Source: Escherichia coli
GTDB taxonomy: Bacteria; Pseudomonadota; Gammaproteobacteria; Enterobacterales; Enterobacteriaceae
Assembly: GCF_003334815.1 (NCBI RefSeq)
Contig: NZ_QOWO01000017.1
Reading direction: 5' to 3' (one strand)
Length of the DNA stretch: 64,000 nt
The notes under the pieces are model-generated. The model saw nothing but the letters and a program-made list of their open reading frames with translations. It made no database searches and was not told where the DNA came from. Of the stretch, positions 1,084-37,741 are shown piece by piece (within the stretch, counting starts at the first letter, position 1; every line of letters begins with the position of its first letter). A program made the position numbers and the translations under genes.

Positions 1084-1157
1084 GAAAGACGCGCATTTGT
1101 TATCATCATCCCTGAATTCAGAGATGAAATTTTGGCCACTCACGAGTGGCCTTTTTC
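1084..1157 (+). ncRNA. micA: MicA (SraD) small regulatory RNA
   Basis: Sequence GAAAGACGCGCATTTGTTATCATCATCCCTGAATTCAGAGATGAAATTTTGGCCACTCACGAGTGGCCTTTTT matches MicA as I recall it; ends in a terminator hairpin plus U-tract; lies between luxS and gshA. Confidence 0.85.
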
Positions 1158-4065: not shown

Positions 4066-4142
4066 TGGTGCATCCGGGAGGATTCGAACCTCCGACCGCT
4101 CGGTTCGTAGCCGAGTACTCTATCCAGCTGAGCTACGGATGC
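4066..4142 (-). tRNA. argV: tRNA-Arg (anticodon ACG)
   Basis: Reverse complement reads GCATCCGTAGCTCAGCTGGATAGAGTACTCGGCTACGAACCGAGCGGTCGGAGGTTCGAATCCTCCCGGATGCACCA. Confidence 0.95.
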
Positions 4143-4205
4143 ATCGGGAAAACTTATTCTACTGCTGATATTGATACCGCTACTAAAGCCATATCAATTA
4201 AGAGA

Positions 4206-4223
4206 TGGTGCATCCGGGAGGAT
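4206..4223 (-). repeat. Second tRNA-Arg 3'-end fragment inside the inter-tRNA repeat unit
   Basis: tggtgcatccgggaggat matches the tRNA-Arg 3' end; the ~275 bp unit is repeated. Confidence 0.7.
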
Positions 4224-4340
4224 TACTCGCCTTGCGGCTCGCCCTTCGGGCCGTTGCTAAAGCAACGTTATCATCCCTAGTGCCTGCGGTTAATACCGCT
4301 ATCTCTTCGATACCTTCATTGCTGAAGGTTACGGAGAATA

Positions 4341-4417
4341 TGGTGCATCCGGGAGGATTCGAACCTCCGACCGCTCGGTTCGTAGCCGAGTACTCTATCC
4401 AGCTGAGCTACGGATGC
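4341..4417 (-). tRNA. argV: tRNA-Arg (anticodon ACG), second copy
   Basis: Identical 77 nt sequence to the copy at 4066..4142. Confidence 0.95.
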
Positions 4418-4420
4418 AAA

Positions 4421-4513
4421 TGGCGGTGAGGCGGGGATTCGAACCCCGGATGCAGCTTTTGACCGCATACTCCCTTAGCAGGGGAGCGCCTTCAGCCTCT
4501 CGGCCACCTCACC
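4421..4513 (-). tRNA. serV: tRNA-Ser (anticodon GCU)
   Basis: Reverse complement reads GGTGAGGTGGCCGAGAGGCTGAAGGCGCTCCCCTGCTAAGGGAGTATGCGGTCAAAAGCTGCATCCGGGGTTCGAATCCCCGCCTCACCGCCA, a long-variable-arm Ser tRNA. Confidence 0.95.
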
Positions 4514-18225: not shown

Positions 18226-18280
18226 TACTCATTAATGGGCATAATTTTATTTATAGAGTAAAAACAATCAGATAAAAAAC

Positions 18281-18296
18281 TGGCACGCAATCTGCA
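18281..18296 (+). promoter_or_regulatory. Sigma-54 (-24/-12) promoter of norVW
   Basis: CTGGCACGCAATCTGCA has GG-N10-GC spacing, about 50 bp upstream of the norV ATG. Confidence 0.85.
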
Positions 18297-23973: not shown

Positions 23974-24121
23974 CAAATTCTCCAGCAATGACAGTTAATG
24001 CGCCGATACATTCACAAATCATGCCAGTTTTTAATTTACTGTTATTTAAGGAAATTAATTTCTGTAATGCAGGAAAAACGATGTCATCGACACTAGTGAC
24101 GATGACATGTGATGACAATGT

Positions 24122-25135
24122 TTATCGCGAAGGAGCAATGAGTGAGTCGCGGCGGATCAGTTTTCCGCTGAAGGTTTTCGGCGGTGAGAAATCCCCGCCA
24201 TCGAGCATAAAAATCAGCCGTCCAATAATTTCCTGAATCATCTCAGTCACCGGAATTTTTACGCTGGAGAGCGCCGGAACGGTGTAGGGGGCAATAGCGA
24301 TATCATCGAATCCGATAACTGACACCTGCTCTGGCACCGCTACGCCGCGCTCGTGTAACGCTTTCATCGCACCTATCGCCATATCGTCGTTACTGGCAAC
24401 TAACGCGCTAAATTTAGCCCCACGTTCGAGCAACATTTCTACCCCTTCGGCCCCGCTGGCAGGCGTCCATTTACCGTTAGCGATAAGTTTTTCATTGAGC
24501 GCAATACCATGCTGCGCCAGCGCGTCTTTATACCCGGCAAGACGTTCAATGCTGGTGGGGGAATCCATCGAGCCGGTAAGGAAAGCAATCTCCTGATGCC
24601 CGGCGTTTATCAACTCTGCCACGGCGTTAAAACTGGTCTGTTTATGATCGCACCAGACGCTATGGCTGCTGTTTTTGCGCAGGCGGCGATTAAGCACCAT
24701 TATCGGCTGACTGTGCGCGTCAATGATGTCATCGATCTCATCCACGCTTAAAAAACGCGGGTAAATCATGATCGCGTCGCAGCGCAGATCCAGCAGATAC
24801 TGAATCGCCTGGCGCTCTTCTTCTGCGCTGTGTTTACCATCTGCCAATAGCAACTGCCGCCCTTTCTCTTCCGCCATTCGCGCGGCATGAAAGAGTAATT
24901 CACTAAAATAAATGCCGTGGTAAAGCGTGTTGGTCACTACCAGCCCCAGCGTCTGAGTACTCTTCGCCGACAGATTGCGCGCCAGCAAGTTTGGACGGTA
25001 ACCGCTCTCTTCTACCGCCTGAAACACGCGATCTTTAGTCTCCTGGCTGACGTAGCCATTACCTGAAAGCACGCGGGAAACGGTCGCTTTTGAAACCCCG
25101 GCGCGCTTCGCCACTTCCAGCATCGTCGTCATCAT
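24122..25135 (-). CDS. ascG: LacI/GalR-family repressor of the asc operon
   Basis: N-terminal HTH MTTMLEVAKRAGVSKATVSRVL and periplasmic-binding-like domain; start set at the internal Met. Confidence 0.9.
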   Translation of the reverse strand: MMTTMLEVAKRAGVSKATVSRVLSGNGYVSQETKDRVFQAVEESGYRPNLLARNLSAKSTQTLGLVVTNTLYHGIYFSELLFHAARMAEEKGRQLLLADGKHSAEEERQAIQYLLDLRCDAIMIYPRFLSVDEIDDIIDAHSQPIMVLNRRLRKNSSHSVWCDHKQTSFNAVAELINAGHQEIAFLTGSMDSPTSIERLAGYKDALAQHGIALNEKLIANGKWTPASGAEGVEMLLERGAKFSALVASNDDMAIGAMKALHERGVAVPEQVSVIGFDDIAIAPYTVPALSSVKIPVTEMIQEIIGRLIFMLDGGDFSPPKTFSGKLIRRDSLIAPSR

Positions 25136-30629: not shown

Positions 30630-32339
30630 TTATTTCAGCGGCGAGTTTTTACGCTCAATGCTGTAACGCTCGAGTTCTTTGTACGGCACCACTTTGCTCT
30701 TCTTCTTACGCACATCGACCACGGTCATGCGGTCGGTACAGGAGTAGCAAGGGTCGAGGCTACCGATAATCAGCGGCGCATCGGAAACGGTGTTGCCGCG
30801 CAGCATGTAGCGCAGGGTCGGCCAGTTCGCGTAGGTCGCGGCACGGCAGCGCCAGCGGTACAGCTTCTGGTTGTCGCCGGTCATGCTCCAGTGGATATCA
30901 TCGCCGCGCGGCGCTTCGGCAAAGCCCAGCGCAAAGCGGTGCGGAATGTAGGTAAAGCCTTCCACCATCAGTGGGCCACCCGGCAGGTTATCCAGACCGT
31001 AGTCGATCATGTTCAGCGCGGTATAGACTTCGTTGATACGCACTTTCAGACGGGAAATAACGTCGCAGCCCTGCTCGCTGTGGACTTCCATTGGCAGCAG
31101 GCCATAGCCGACAAACGGGTGATCGGCGCGGGTATCACGGGCGTGACCGCTGGCACGGACCATCGGGCCGACGTTACTGAAGTCGCGAGCGATTTCCGGG
31201 TCCAGACGACCAATGCCGACAGTGCGCTGTTCCATGTTCGGAGTGCTCAGCAGCACATCCACCAGCTCCTGCACTTCACGACGCATCTGTTGTGCCAGCT
31301 GGCGGGTCTGGATCATGTCGTCTTTCAGCAGATCGCGACGAATCCCGCCGATCAAGTTCAGGCCGTAGGTTTTACGCGCACCGGTAAGGATCTCTGCCAT
31401 TTTCATGGAGGTTTCACGCACGCGGAAGAACTGCATAAAGCCGGAGTCGAAGCCGGTAAAGTGACAGGCCAGGCCAAGGTTGAGCAGATGCGAGTGCAAG
31501 CGTTCTACCTCCAGCAGAATGGCGCGGATCATCTGCGCACGTTCTGGCACCTGAATACCCATCGCGTTTTCCACCGACGTGGTGTAGGCGGTGCTGTGGG
31601 CAAAGCCGCAGATCCCGCACACACGGTCAGAGAGGAAGGTCACTTCGTTATAACCCATACGGGTTTCCGCCAGTTTTTCCATGCCGCGATGGACGTAGAA
31701 CAGACGGTAGTCGGCGTCGATAATGTTTTCGCCATCGACGAACAGACGGAAGTGGCCCGGTTCATCAGAAGTGACGTGCAGCGGACCAATCGGCACGACG
31801 TTGTTTTTCTTGTCGCCCAGTTCGTTGATGAACTCGTAGGTTTCAGCATCGGTGGTCGGTGCCGGACGCTGACGATAATCCATGCTGTCTTTACGCAGCG
31901 GATAAAGTTCATCCGGCCAGTCATCCGGCAGCACCAGACGACGTTCATCCGGCAGACCAACCGGAATCAAACCGTACATATCGCGCACTTCACGCTCGCC
32001 CCACACCGCCGCCGGAACGCGCGGCGTCACGGACGGATATTCCGGTTTGTTGGCGTCAACTTCGACGCGAACCGTAATCCAACACTTAGTGCCCTTCTCC
32101 ATCGACAGCACGTAGTAAACGGCGTAATGACCATTCAGTTTGCGTTCGTCGTTACCAAACAGCACCGACAGCCAGCCACCCTGTTTGTAGTAAAGAAACT
32201 CCACCACTTCCGGCAGGTAGTTCACCTTTACGGTGACAGTCAGCTGATCTTTGGTCTGCCAGGCGTGGTCCAGCACGACGCCCGGAAATGCCTCATTCAG
32301 CGCGGCGAGATAATGTTGACCTAATTTTTCTTCAGACAT
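30630..32339 (-). CDS. hycE: Hydrogenase 3 [NiFe] large subunit
   Basis: NuoC-NuoD-like fusion; C-terminal DPCxSCxDR nickel-binding motif; start set at MSEEKLGQHY. Confidence 0.95.
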   Translation of the reverse strand: MSEEKLGQHYLAALNEAFPGVVLDHAWQTKDQLTVTVKVNYLPEVVEFLYYKQGGWLSVLFGNDERKLNGHYAVYYVLSMEKGTKCWITVRVEVDANKPEYPSVTPRVPAAVWGEREVRDMYGLIPVGLPDERRLVLPDDWPDELYPLRKDSMDYRQRPAPTTDAETYEFINELGDKKNNVVPIGPLHVTSDEPGHFRLFVDGENIIDADYRLFYVHRGMEKLAETRMGYNEVTFLSDRVCGICGFAHSTAYTTSVENAMGIQVPERAQMIRAILLEVERLHSHLLNLGLACHFTGFDSGFMQFFRVRETSMKMAEILTGARKTYGLNLIGGIRRDLLKDDMIQTRQLAQQMRREVQELVDVLLSTPNMEQRTVGIGRLDPEIARDFSNVGPMVRASGHARDTRADHPFVGYGLLPMEVHSEQGCDVISRLKVRINEVYTALNMIDYGLDNLPGGPLMVEGFTYIPHRFALGFAEAPRGDDIHWSMTGDNQKLYRWRCRAATYANWPTLRYMLRGNTVSDAPLIIGSLDPCYSCTDRMTVVDVRKKKSKVVPYKELERYSIERKNSPLK

Positions 32340-35109: not shown

Positions 35110-35717
35110 TTAGCCTCTCCACTTTGAGCCTGCTGAAACAAGGTGAGATCGCCAAAGTCCGTGTTAAAGGTCAGCTCACGCTTACGTTTGCTGACGCGGG
35201 CGATATCGGTGTTATCCACCAGATGCAGGGCTTTAGTCGGGCACATCCGCACGCAGGCCGGACCTTGTTCATCAAAGCTACAAAGGTCACATTTGACGGC
35301 GATCGCGCGAATACCTGGCACCCAGTCAAGCAATGTGCTGACACGCGCCGGAGCAGGCGGTGCCGGTGGCGCTTTCGGGGTATTGGCGTTTGCCGGAATA
35401 TCCAGCGGACGGCTGCCGGAAAATTCAATTGCGCCAAACGGGCAGGCGATGCCGCACAGCTTGCAGCTTACGCACAGGCTTTCATTCAACTGCACGGCCC
35501 CATCGACGCGGGTGATGGCGTTAACCGGGCAGACCACCGCGCAGGGTGCATCTTCACAGTGGTGACAGAGCTGCGGCGCAGATTCTTTTTCATTCAGCAT
35601 CACTCTCAGGCGCGGCATTGATTGCAGGCCGTGCTGGCGATGCGTCTCTGAACAGGCGGCCTCACAAGTGTGGCAGCCGATACAGAGCGTGGAGTCAGCA
35701 ATTACAAAACGATTCAC
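35106..35717 (-). CDS. hycB: Formate hydrogenlyase Fe-S subunit
   Basis: 203 aa; four ferredoxin-type Cys clusters. Confidence 0.93.
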   Translation of the reverse strand: MNRFVIADSTLCIGCHTCEAACSETHRQHGLQSMPRLRVMLNEKESAPQLCHHCEDAPCAVVCPVNAITRVDGAVQLNESLCVSCKLCGIACPFGAIEFSGSRPLDIPANANTPKAPPAPPAPARVSTLLDWVPGIRAIAVKCDLCSFDEQGPACVRMCPTKALHLVDNTDIARVSKRKRELTFNTDFGDLTLFQQAQSGEAK

Positions 35718-35841
35718 CAGGCATTCCTCAGGTGATTGTCATTTTTGACGAAAACATGCCGATGAAATGTCATTTTCGACACTCATCGACACGCCCATCC
35801 CCAAACAGGCGTAACGCCTGCAAAACGGGCAAAGCCTCAGC

Positions 35842-36303
35842 TCATGCTGCCGGGCTTTGTCCCTTTACCAGTTGGCTTAAATTCACCGGCACATTGTTTT
35901 CAATAGCGGTGTATAAGCTGTCGTAAACGCCAGCGATTTTTTCGAGATAGTGTTCCAGAACCTGTTCGCGATCGCGGATGTTGACCTTGCCATCAATCAT
36001 GCCGTCAATGCTCAGTTGCGCCTGCGCAATCCGCTGTTTGTCTTCGCCATCTTTTGTTTCGACGTAATACTCGATGGTGTGGCTGTTAAAGCCATCCGCC
36101 AGGGTGACGTAAATGCGAAAATGTTCAAAAAGGACGAAACAGAGTTCTTTGTCCGGCGCGCAGCTCATGGCGTGATGCAGGCGCGCTTTCGATAACGTGA
36201 TCCCCTGAACCAGCGAATTGCAGTAGATGTGCCACTGGTCCTGTAGGCGACGATGCCGCTGTGCGATGTAATCGGCTTTCTCGCTTATTTCCCAAATAGT
36301 CAT
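35842..36303 (-). CDS. hycA: Formate hydrogenlyase regulatory protein HycA
   Basis: 153 aa translation recognised as HycA. Confidence 0.92.
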   Translation of the reverse strand: MTIWEISEKADYIAQRHRRLQDQWHIYCNSLVQGITLSKARLHHAMSCAPDKELCFVLFEHFRIYVTLADGFNSHTIEYYVETKDGEDKQRIAQAQLSIDGMIDGKVNIRDREQVLEHYLEKIAGVYDSLYTAIENNVPVNLSQLVKGQSPAA

Positions 36304-36338
36304 TGTCAGGTTACCCGTTTAACAGAGATGCCAGCTTT

Positions 36339-36358
36339 AAGCATTTTTTGTGCCAACT
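36339..36358 (-). promoter_or_regulatory. Sigma-54 promoter of the hyc operon
   Basis: Minus strand reads TTGGCACAAAAAATGCTT with GG-N10-GC spacing. Confidence 0.75.
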
Positions 36359-36394
36359 TTTAATTTATTGTTATTAAAGAGATTTTTAAGCTAA

Positions 36395-36445
36395 AGATGA
36401 ATTTCGTCGCCGTGTCGACGTGTCATTTCGACATCATCGACATTA
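36395..36445. promoter_or_regulatory. Probable FhlA upstream activating region shared by hyc and hyp
   Basis: Clustered GTCGAC/CATCGACA repeats (tgtcgacgtgtcatttcgacatcatcgaca) midway between the divergent sigma-54 promoters. Confidence 0.55.
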
Positions 36446-36466
36446 TTCACCGCAGGGATAATCAAC

Positions 36467-36483
36467 ACTGGCACAATTATTGC
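36467..36483 (+). promoter_or_regulatory. Sigma-54 promoter of the hyp operon
   Basis: CTGGCACAATTATTGCT with GG-N10-GC spacing, about 35 bp upstream of hypA. Confidence 0.75.
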
Positions 36484-36514
36484 TTGTAGCTGGCAATAGT
36501 TAATGGGAGGCGAT

Positions 36515-36865
36515 ATGCACGAAATAACCCTCTGCCAACGGGCACTGGAATTGATCGAACAGCAGGCCGCAAAACACGGCGCAAAACGCGTAACTGGGGT
36601 CTGGCTCAAAATTGGCGCATTTTCTTGTGTCGAAACCAGCTCTCTTGCCTTTTGTTTTGATCTGGTTTGCCGCGGCAGCGTGGCGGAAGGTTGTAAACTG
36701 CACCTCGAAGAACAAGAGGCCGAATGCTGGTGTGAAACATGCCAACAGTATGTGACGCTACTGACCCAGCGCGTCCGCCGCTGTCCACAGTGTCATGGTG
36801 ACATGCTGCAGATTGTGGCAGACGACGGTTTACAGATTCGGCGGATAGAAATAGACCAGGAGTGA
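36515..36865 (+). CDS. hypA: Hydrogenase nickel-insertion protein HypA
   Basis: Start set at MHEITLCQRALE; two zinc-binding CxxC pairs. Confidence 0.93.
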   Translation: MHEITLCQRALELIEQQAAKHGAKRVTGVWLKIGAFSCVETSSLAFCFDLVCRGSVAEGCKLHLEEQEAECWCETCQQYVTLLTQRVRRCPQCHGDMLQIVADDGLQIRRIEIDQE

Positions 36866-36868
36866 GCG

Positions 36869-37741
36869 ATGTGTACAACATGCGGTTGCGGTGAAGGCAA
36901 CCTGTATATCGAGGGTGATGAACATAACCCTCATTCCGCGTTTCGTAGCGCGCCATTTGCCCCGGCGGCACGCCCGAAGATGAAAATCACCGGCATTAAA
37001 GCGCCTGAATTTACCCCCAGCCAGACTGAAGAAGGCGACCTGCATTACGGTCATGGCGAAGCGGGCACTCACGCACCGGGCATGAGCCAGCGTCGGATGC
37101 TGGAAGTCGAAATTGACGTGCTGGACAAAAATAACCGTCTGGCTGAACGCAACCGCGCGCGCTTTGCTGCCCGCAAGCAACTGGTGCTCAACCTGGTTTC
37201 CAGCCCTGGTTCCGGTAAAACCACCCTGCTGACGGAAACCCTAATGCGCCTGAAAGACAGCGTTCCGTGCGCAGTTATTGAAGGCGACCAGCAAACCGTG
37301 AACGATGCCGCACGCATTCGCGCTACCGGCACACCAGCGATTCAGGTGAACACCGGTAAAGGCTGCCATCTTGACGCACAGATGATTGCCGACGCCGCAC
37401 CGCGTCTGCCACTGGACGATAACGGTATTCTGTTTATCGAAAACGTTGGCAACCTCGTATGCCCGGCCAGCTTCGATCTCGGTGAAAAACACAAAGTGGC
37501 GGTGCTTTCCGTTACCGAAGGTGAAGACAAACCGCTGAAATATCCGCATATGTTTGCCGCCGCCTCGCTGATGCTGCTCAACAAAGTTGACCTGTTGCCG
37601 TATCTCAACTTTGACGTTGAAAAGTGCATCGCCTGCGCCCGCGAAGTCAATCCAGAAATTGAAATCATCCTTATTTCCGCCACCAGCGGCGAAGGGATGG
37701 ACCAGTGGCTGAACTGGCTGGAGACACAGCGATGTGCATAG
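36869..37741 (+). CDS. hypB: Hydrogenase nickel-incorporation GTPase HypB
   Basis: N-terminal CTTCGC metal site and GTPase P-loop GSPGSGKT. Confidence 0.95.

Follow-up and report, generated by a model that had tools for sequence, protein, structure and literature searches.

The closest described system, which is the present locus itself, is the pair of divergent sigma-54 (NtrA-dependent) promoters belonging to the operons hyc and hyp in Escherichia coli, listed in EcoCyc as hycAp and hypAp. These formate-regulon promoters are the subject of Lutz et al. 1990, Schlensog et al. 1994, Hopper et al. 1994 and Leonhartsberger et al. 2000; in its work of 1994, Böck's group reportedly described a site between hycA and hycB as an FhlA target and assigned it to hyp, and Hopper et al. 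1994 reportedly found an IHF site in the hyc promoter region. In the classical sigma-54 systems, such as NifA-nifH and NtrC-glnHp2, the elements are arranged in the order enhancer, IHF bend site and -24/-12 promoter.

The DNA analyzed here is a 64-kb stretch of the E. coli K-12 type (hereafter, the window), in which an initial annotation had flagged the interval 36304-36514. The annotated starts of hycA (36303, minus strand) and hypA (ATG at 36515) abut this interval, which thus coincides with the hycA-hypA spacer. According to the RefSeq annotation, hycA (35842..36303, minus strand), the first gene of the hyc operon, encodes the formate hydrogenlyase regulator, and hypA (36515..36865, plus strand) is the first gene of the hyp operon; the hyc operon hycABCDEFGHI runs leftwards, and hypABCDE, followed by the activator gene fhlA, lies to the right. 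The fhlA gene (about 40206-42284), which encodes the formate hydrogenlyase activator, stands last in the hyp operon. In RefSeq record NZ_CP032667.1 (locus L084, 17407-19485), the activator gene bears the symbol 'flhA', the name of a flagellar gene, together with the correct product name.

The 1.2 kb around the hycA-hypA spacer are 100% identical to the sequence of E. coli K-12 MG1655 and are found in 5,426 of 5,426 complete E. coli genomes. The locus is the published hyc/hyp control region base for base, with the same genes, the same promoter 17-mers (published as sites OS27 and OS28) and no difference in sequence; it is already known, contains nothing new in sequence, and was correctly presented in the initial annotation as a confirmation of known biology. 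For comparison, the locus was taken from 80 species of Enterobacteriaceae, including members of Escherichia, Salmonella, Citrobacter, Enterobacter, Klebsiella, Raoultella, Kluyvera, Kosakonia and Lelliottia. The divergent hycA-hypA order is present in all 80 species, with a spacer of 188-223 bp. We conclude that the interval is, with high probability, a formate-regulon control region with divergent sigma-54 promoters, an FhlA-type enhancer (denoted UAS-A) and an IHF-like site on the hyc side, and that a second FhlA-type enhancer (UAS-B) lies outside it.

The hyc promoter (TTGGCACAAAAAATGCT, 36340..36356, minus strand, with an extra T at 36339) contains GG at 36354/36353 and GC at 36342/36341, and its predicted start at about 36329 is 26 nt before the hycA ATG. 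The hyp promoter (CTGGCACAATTATTGCT, 36468..36484, plus strand) contains GG at 36470/36471 and GC at 36482/36483; its start, predicted at about 36495, precedes the hypA ATG by 20 nt. Both assignments draw on the sequence itself, a position matrix, ChIP-seq and conservation. The promoters are positioned back to back, with 116 bp separating their -24 GG pairs. The initial annotation had recognized both elements, namely a minus-strand GG-N10-GC element for hyc, given as 36339..36358 and thus overlong by 2 nt at the high-coordinate end, and a plus-strand element for hyp, given as 36467..36483, which is off by 1 nt. The hyp promoter is the sole exact match to TGGCAC-N5-TTGCW in the window, and the hyc promoter matches with one mismatch (ATGC for TTGC).

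A loose search of the window for this consensus (TGGCACN5TTGCW, at most one mismatch) shows no enrichment, with 4 matches found vs 3.9 expected, and is not significant alone; therefore, a position matrix was built instead from 38 other published E. coli sigma-54 sites (Table 1 of Bonocora et al., 2015, PMC4591121), leaving out hyc, hyp and two other known sites of the window. When both strands of the 64 kb (about 128,000 positions) were scanned, hyp ranked first with 21.1 bits and hyc ranked third with 17.2 bits, behind the known norV promoter. The maxima in 20 shuffled windows were 12.4-16.4 bits, below the scores of both promoters, so that sigma-54 promoter scoring, which had been suggested as a check together with the initial annotation, came out in its favor.

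Published binding data point in the same direction. Both exact 17-mers are in vivo sigma-54 ChIP-seq sites, OS27 (hycA; FAT 91) and OS28 (hypA; FAT 201, with the top PSSM score of the table, 14.09), and both are flagged 'C', that is, experimentally confirmed in EcoCyc (PMC4591121). A gSELEX peak of the RpoN holoenzyme is located within the hycA-hypA spacer (PMC8743547), and in Salmonella the homologous hyc and hyp sites were both bound in ChIP-chip experiments, with RpoN-dependent expression of 26-fold for hyc and 5.6-fold for hyp (PMC3844500). Both motifs are retained in all 80 species, scoring 11.4-18.3 bits for hyc and 16.9-21.1 bits for hyp; in every species the hyc motif ends at 34-37 nt from the ATG of hycA, and in 79 of 80 the hyp motif ends at 28-34 nt from that of hypA. 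In the alignment, the core bases of the -24 and -12 elements are invariant, including AGCA and TGCCA of the hyc promoter, and most of the remaining spacer has diverged. The identification of the hyc and hyp elements as sigma-54 promoters of the FhlA/formate regulon is thus supported, and the corresponding reading in the initial annotation, control by FhlA and formate, is borne out by the gene context, by sites OS27 and OS28, and by binding and RpoN dependence in Salmonella, as well as by repeats that match the FhlA matrix and consensus of the literature.

Several further observations concern the immediate surroundings of the promoters. The two promoters form a 27-nt inverted repeat (36329-36355 and 36469-36495; 81% complementary) that reaches beyond the -12 element, and AGCTGGCA follows both of them at about the predicted start; in other genera, the downstream part shows only loose conservation. 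In 35600-37000, neither sigma-70-type promoters nor terminators were detected above chance, and the lone 'terminator-like' match there is the GTCGAC palindrome region of UAS-A. An FNR-consensus search of the hycA-hypA spacer yielded nothing convincing, and Rfam gave no family match in or near the hyc-hyp control region. Across the whole window, there are 51 matches to the FNR-type motif TTGATNNNNATCAA with at most two mismatches, vs 28.9 ± 4.9 in shuffled sequences, and none of 100 shuffles reaches 51. The Rfam matches elsewhere in the window, MicA sRNA (1084-1155, plus strand) and three tRNA genes (4069-4513, minus strand), are unrelated to hyc/hyp.

Other sigma-54 motifs of the window include two published sites and two additional matches. 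The known norV promoter (CTGGCACGCAATCTGCA, 18280-18296, plus strand; 18.0 bits, rank 2) is identical to the published site OS25, and the hydN-hypF promoter (CTGGCATGATTTGTGAA, 24011-24027, minus strand) is the published site OS26. The latter is accompanied by TGTCATC / GTCGATGACATCG repeats at about 24080-24125, about 80-120 bp upstream of its predicted start, so that the promoter and repeats make up a third FhlA-regulon control region in the same window. A sigma-54-like motif inside hycA (GTGGCACATCTACTGCA, 36219-36235, minus strand, codons about 23-29; 16.05 bits, rank 4) is located 121 bp downstream of the hyc promoter in the same orientation and recurs at the same hycA codon position in all sampled species, with scores of 7-19 bits. 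Its -12 GC is lost in several species through a synonymous change of TGC to TGT, so the motif is probably a by-product of the W-H..Y-C codons, and we rejected it as a promoter on the view that it largely reflects conserved codons. In the text of Bonocora et al., hycA is named once, for OS27, and no intragenic hycA site is given (PMC4591121). Another sigma-54-like match (CTGGCACAACAGATGCG, 31282-31298, minus strand; 14.0 bits) lies inside hycE in the sense orientation and scores within the shuffled range.

Between the two promoters lies UAS-A (36400..36446, plus strand), a predicted FhlA-type enhancer identified by four direct TCGWC pentamers, a matrix match and conservation. The pentamers, all on the plus strand, start at 36404, 36415, 36428 and 36437 and span 36404-36441, with spacings of 11, 13 and 9 bp, or about one helical turn, and GTCGAC is found at 36414-36419. 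This GTCGAC and the four pentamers correspond to the GTCGAC-type repeats that had been noted between the promoters in the initial annotation. UAS-A is the only place in the 64 kb with at least four same-strand TCGWC pentamers within 45 bp, a density reached by 13 of 300 shuffled windows. It extends from -71 to -117 relative to the predicted hyc start, in line with the distance expected for an enhancer (roughly 80-140 bp upstream of a sigma-54 promoter), and from -49 to -95 relative to the predicted hyp start. The 11/13/9-bp spacing would put the FhlA sites on one face of the helix, in agreement with a second-hand statement in the literature that FhlA binds to one side of the DNA; binding of FhlA upstream of hyc is likewise stated second-hand.

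A study of Proteus provides a 14-column FhlA matrix derived from 13 characterised sites. With the published FhlA matrix, UAS-A scores 16.1 bits (36429-36442), the second best match in the 64-kb window, although the matrix was probably built in part from hyc/hyp sites, and high scores are therefore not independent evidence. The FhlA consensus CATTTCGTACGAAATG is credited to Leonhartsberger et al. (2000) in a review. As a scanner, the idealized 16-mer FhlA consensus performed poorly and was set aside, given that real sites match it at 9-11 of 16 positions and unrelated positions of the window score equally. Three lines of support for UAS-A are independent of the matrix, namely a phylogenetic footprint, strand bias and the presence of arrays at other FhlA-dependent promoters. 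The footprint GAC(R)TGTCATTTCGWCA..TCGWCAT is conserved across 81 sequences, and the conserved core is GTGTCATTTCGACATCATCGACAT (36420-36443). The TCGWC pentamers number 2.99 per species on the plus strand vs 0.90 on the minus strand. Repeats resembling UAS-A (TTTCGTC, TGTCGAA and TGTCATCGTCA) are found upstream of fdhF, hyfA and hydN, and the arrays of fdhF and hydN are centered about 100 bp upstream of the predicted starts.

A second predicted FhlA-type enhancer, UAS-B (35737..35792, plus strand), is located outside the flagged interval, within the 124-bp hycA-hycB spacer; it lies downstream of the hyc start, by about 0.56 kb, and upstream of the hyp start, by about 0.73 kb. It was identified as a matrix match, a near-copy of UAS-A and a conserved element, and consists of two parts, TGTCATTTTTGACGAAA (35737-35753) and TGTCATTTTCGACACTCATCGACAC (35768-35792). 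UAS-B contains the best match to the FhlA matrix in the 64-kb window (17.1 bits at 35768-35781), to which the same reservation about independence applies, along with a match of 11.7 bits at 35737-35750. When 35768-35791 (TGTCATTTTCGACACTCATCGACA) is aligned with 36421-36442 of UAS-A (TGTCATTTCGACATCATCGACA), 22 of 22 aligned bases are identical, with two 1-nt gaps; the alignment score is 36, vs a maximum of 23 in 2000 shuffles, and this is the best non-self match to UAS-A in the 64 kb. The MAFFT alignment of the two arrays was one repeat out of register, and a local pairwise alignment was used instead. Within UAS-B, GTCATTTTTGACGAAA and TTCGACAC-N3-TCGACAC show little or no variation across 81 sequences (those of 80 other species included), and the remainder of the hycA-hycB spacer ranges from 67 to 146 bp across the 80 other species. 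UAS-B is as conserved across the 80 species as UAS-A, which makes this a system of two FhlA-type enhancers rather than of one shared cluster. The matrix scan of the window revealed no sigma-54 motif beside UAS-B, which therefore is most readily seen as an enhancer that works from afar. In most genera, the portion of the hycA-hycB spacer that adjoins the hycA stop codon (35803-35841) is missing; Escherichia, Salmonella and Citrobacter have 40-75 extra nucleotides there, with short inverted repeats such as AGGCGTAACGCCT in E. coli and CGTGACG..CGTCACG in Citrobacter.

An IHF-like site (36361..36373, minus strand) is situated between UAS-A and the hyc promoter; its plus strand reads TAATTTATTGTTA and corresponds, with one mismatch, to the reverse complement of the IHF consensus WATCAANNNNTTR. 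At the aligned position, the site is perfect in 27 of 81 sequences and has one mismatch in 29 more (56 of 81 with at most one), compared with 0.4% expected at this threshold for random 13-mers of the same composition. On the hyp side of UAS-A, no recognizable bend site was found. The inventory of elements in the initial annotation, promoters and repeats, holds as far as it goes but left out both the conserved IHF-like site and UAS-B. Its single central cluster does contain FhlA-type repeats, but is not the only such enhancer, and the description of this cluster as shared exceeds the evidence because the hycA-hycB spacer holds a second conserved enhancer.

The distances between the elements were measured for each species from an alignment of the hycA-hypA spacers (loci L004-L083 against window positions 36354-36470), and fall into discrete length classes: 45, 56-59 and 67-68 bp from the hyc -24 element to the enhancer core; 19-20 and 32 bp within the core; 26-29 and 40-41 bp from the core to the hyp -24 element; and 94, 104-105 and 114-118 bp between the two -24 elements. 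No lengths between these classes occur, and the changes on both sides of the core amount to whole helical turns of about 11 bp, although the independent indel events behind the classes are few, the species are related and, UAS-A being periodic, part of the pattern may reflect sliding of the alignment by one repeat. The hyp leader varies continuously, with lengths of 28, 29, 30, 31, 32, 33, 34 and 42 nt. Individual TCGWC pentamers, when their positions are taken with respect to each promoter, show only a moderate periodicity (R about 0.3-0.4 at periods 11-12), and the alignment-based spacing classes were therefore relied on instead. The whole-turn classes fit a rotational constraint of UAS-A with respect to both promoters and so fit, without proving, the bidirectional use of this enhancer.

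The distribution of the two enhancers between the two promoters can be read in several ways. In an arrangement that we consider plausible, if somewhat short of probable, the enhancers would divide the labor, with UAS-A and IHF serving only hyc, and UAS-B, 0.73 kb upstream, serving only hyp by looping across hycA. This arrangement provides two separate conserved enhancers for two promoters, places UAS-A at the canonical position of about -94 from hyc with the IHF-like site in between, and agrees with what Schlensog et al. 1994 and Hopper et al. 1994 reportedly found; a full-text literature search on the enhancer-to-promoter assignment found nothing specific. However, it does not explain why the distance from UAS-A to hyp changes only by 0-3 or about 11-12 bp, and the hyc promoter, at about 0.56 kb, is likewise reachable from UAS-B. 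These same spacing data would be accommodated if, as the initial annotation has it when read literally, UAS-A alone were a bidirectional enhancer, from which one FhlA assembly activates both promoters, with UAS-B being auxiliary or having another role. The location of UAS-A between the promoters and the whole-turn indels on both sides of its core, which suggest rotational constraints, in contrast to the hyp leader that shows no such quantization, make this a possibility, albeit a doubtful one. Exclusive sharing of UAS-A leaves unexplained a second array that is at least as conserved and includes the best FhlA-matrix match; furthermore, only about 72 bp separate the center of UAS-A from the hyp start (vs about 100 bp for fdhF, hydN and hyc), a bend site is absent on the hyp side, the apparent quantization may partly be alignment slip by one repeat unit, and the 1994 work reportedly gives hyp to the hycA-hycB site.

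A combined scheme, which we consider rather unlikely, holds that UAS-A acts bidirectionally in a fixed rotational register with both closed complexes, and that the array between hycA and hycB cooperates with it through a loop of roughly 0.65 kb across hycA, building the active FhlA oligomer. Such a fixed register would explain the occurrence of indels only in whole helical turns across the 80 species, and, if the scheme is true, the locus would be a two-enhancer, two-promoter unit rather than follow the one-enhancer-per-promoter scheme of the literature of the 1990s. That UAS-B is an RNA or translation signal for hycB in the hyc transcript, rather than a DNA enhancer, is suggested by its strong conservation in a transcribed spacer, where it precedes the hycB start codon by 20-75 nt, but is very improbable given that UAS-B nearly copies UAS-A, a DNA repeat array located between the predicted hyc and hyp starts and hence outside both transcripts, that it contains the best FhlA-matrix match, and that Rfam shows no match to it. 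The notion that the motifs are chance matches devoid of function can appeal to the absence of an excess of loose consensus matches (4 vs 3.9 expected), and is next to negligible in view of matrix scores above those of all shuffles, the published sigma-54 binding in vivo (PMC4591121) and the invariance of the motifs across 80 species within an otherwise diverged spacer.

The preferred reading, a formate-regulon control region with two FhlA enhancers and an IHF-type site on the hyc side, suggests the following mode of action. Sigma-54 holoenzyme would occupy each promoter as a closed complex that is unable to start transcription alone, with the occupancy taken from the literature and the motifs from the present analysis. 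Formate, according to the literature, would activate FhlA, which would then bind the TCGWC arrays; here, the sites are predicted from the matrix, conservation and paralogy, and binding as such is drawn from the literature. The activator would be expected to oligomerize, loop the DNA to the polymerase and spend ATP to open the promoter, and an IHF-type bend between UAS-A and the hyc promoter might help the loop on the hyc side. The hyc promoter would be driven mainly from UAS-A, and the hyp promoter from UAS-B, as the in vitro work of 1994 reportedly indicated, from UAS-A, or from both. The exact start sites, the IHF role and the pairing of enhancers with promoters are predictions that we infer, with the assignment of enhancers to promoters following earlier reports and geometry. 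A point against this explanation is the distance of only about 72 bp between the center of UAS-A and the hyp start, a short one for looping if no bend intervenes. Since the promoters would drive both fhlA (via hyp) and hycA, annotated as a regulator/antagonist of FhlA, the control region would be at the center of two feedback loops, one positive and one negative.

The locus is a textbook example of sigma-54/enhancer control that is recognizable from the raw sequence and offers little matter for discovery; what is mildly new is confined to the spacing classes in whole turns and to how deeply both enhancers are conserved across 80 species. In the annotation or engineering of hyc/hyp, for instance for hydrogen production, the hycA-hycB spacer should be counted as part of the control region, and a hycA deletion that removes this spacer might alter the expression of hyp and fhlA. 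The whole-turn spacing across species amounts to a cheap, testable prediction of which promoter each enhancer serves.

Comparison with other sigma-54 systems places the hyc/hyp region among close relatives. At the fdhF, hydN-hypF and hyfA promoters, a sigma-54 -24/-12 element is likewise preceded by an array of TCGWC / TGTCA-type repeats; in fdhF, hydN and hyc alike, the center of the array lies about 100 bp upstream of the predicted start. However, fdhF, hydN-hypF and hyfA are single promoters, each with its own array, whereas in hyc/hyp two promoters face away from one array and, unlike in these three, a second array is present inside the hyc operon. The hyc side resembles NifA-nifH and NtrC-glnHp2 in the order of enhancer, putative IHF-type site and promoter; in contrast, the hyp side has no recognizable bend site and a much shorter distance to the central array. 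Back-to-back sigma-54 promoters that depend on one enhancer-binding protein are also found at zraP / zraSR in E. coli (OS38 and OS39; PMC4591121), and divergent sigma-54 promoters with one activator are reported for the orp operons of Desulfovibrio vulgaris; in both of these cases, the activators and the site sequences differ from those of hyc/hyp.
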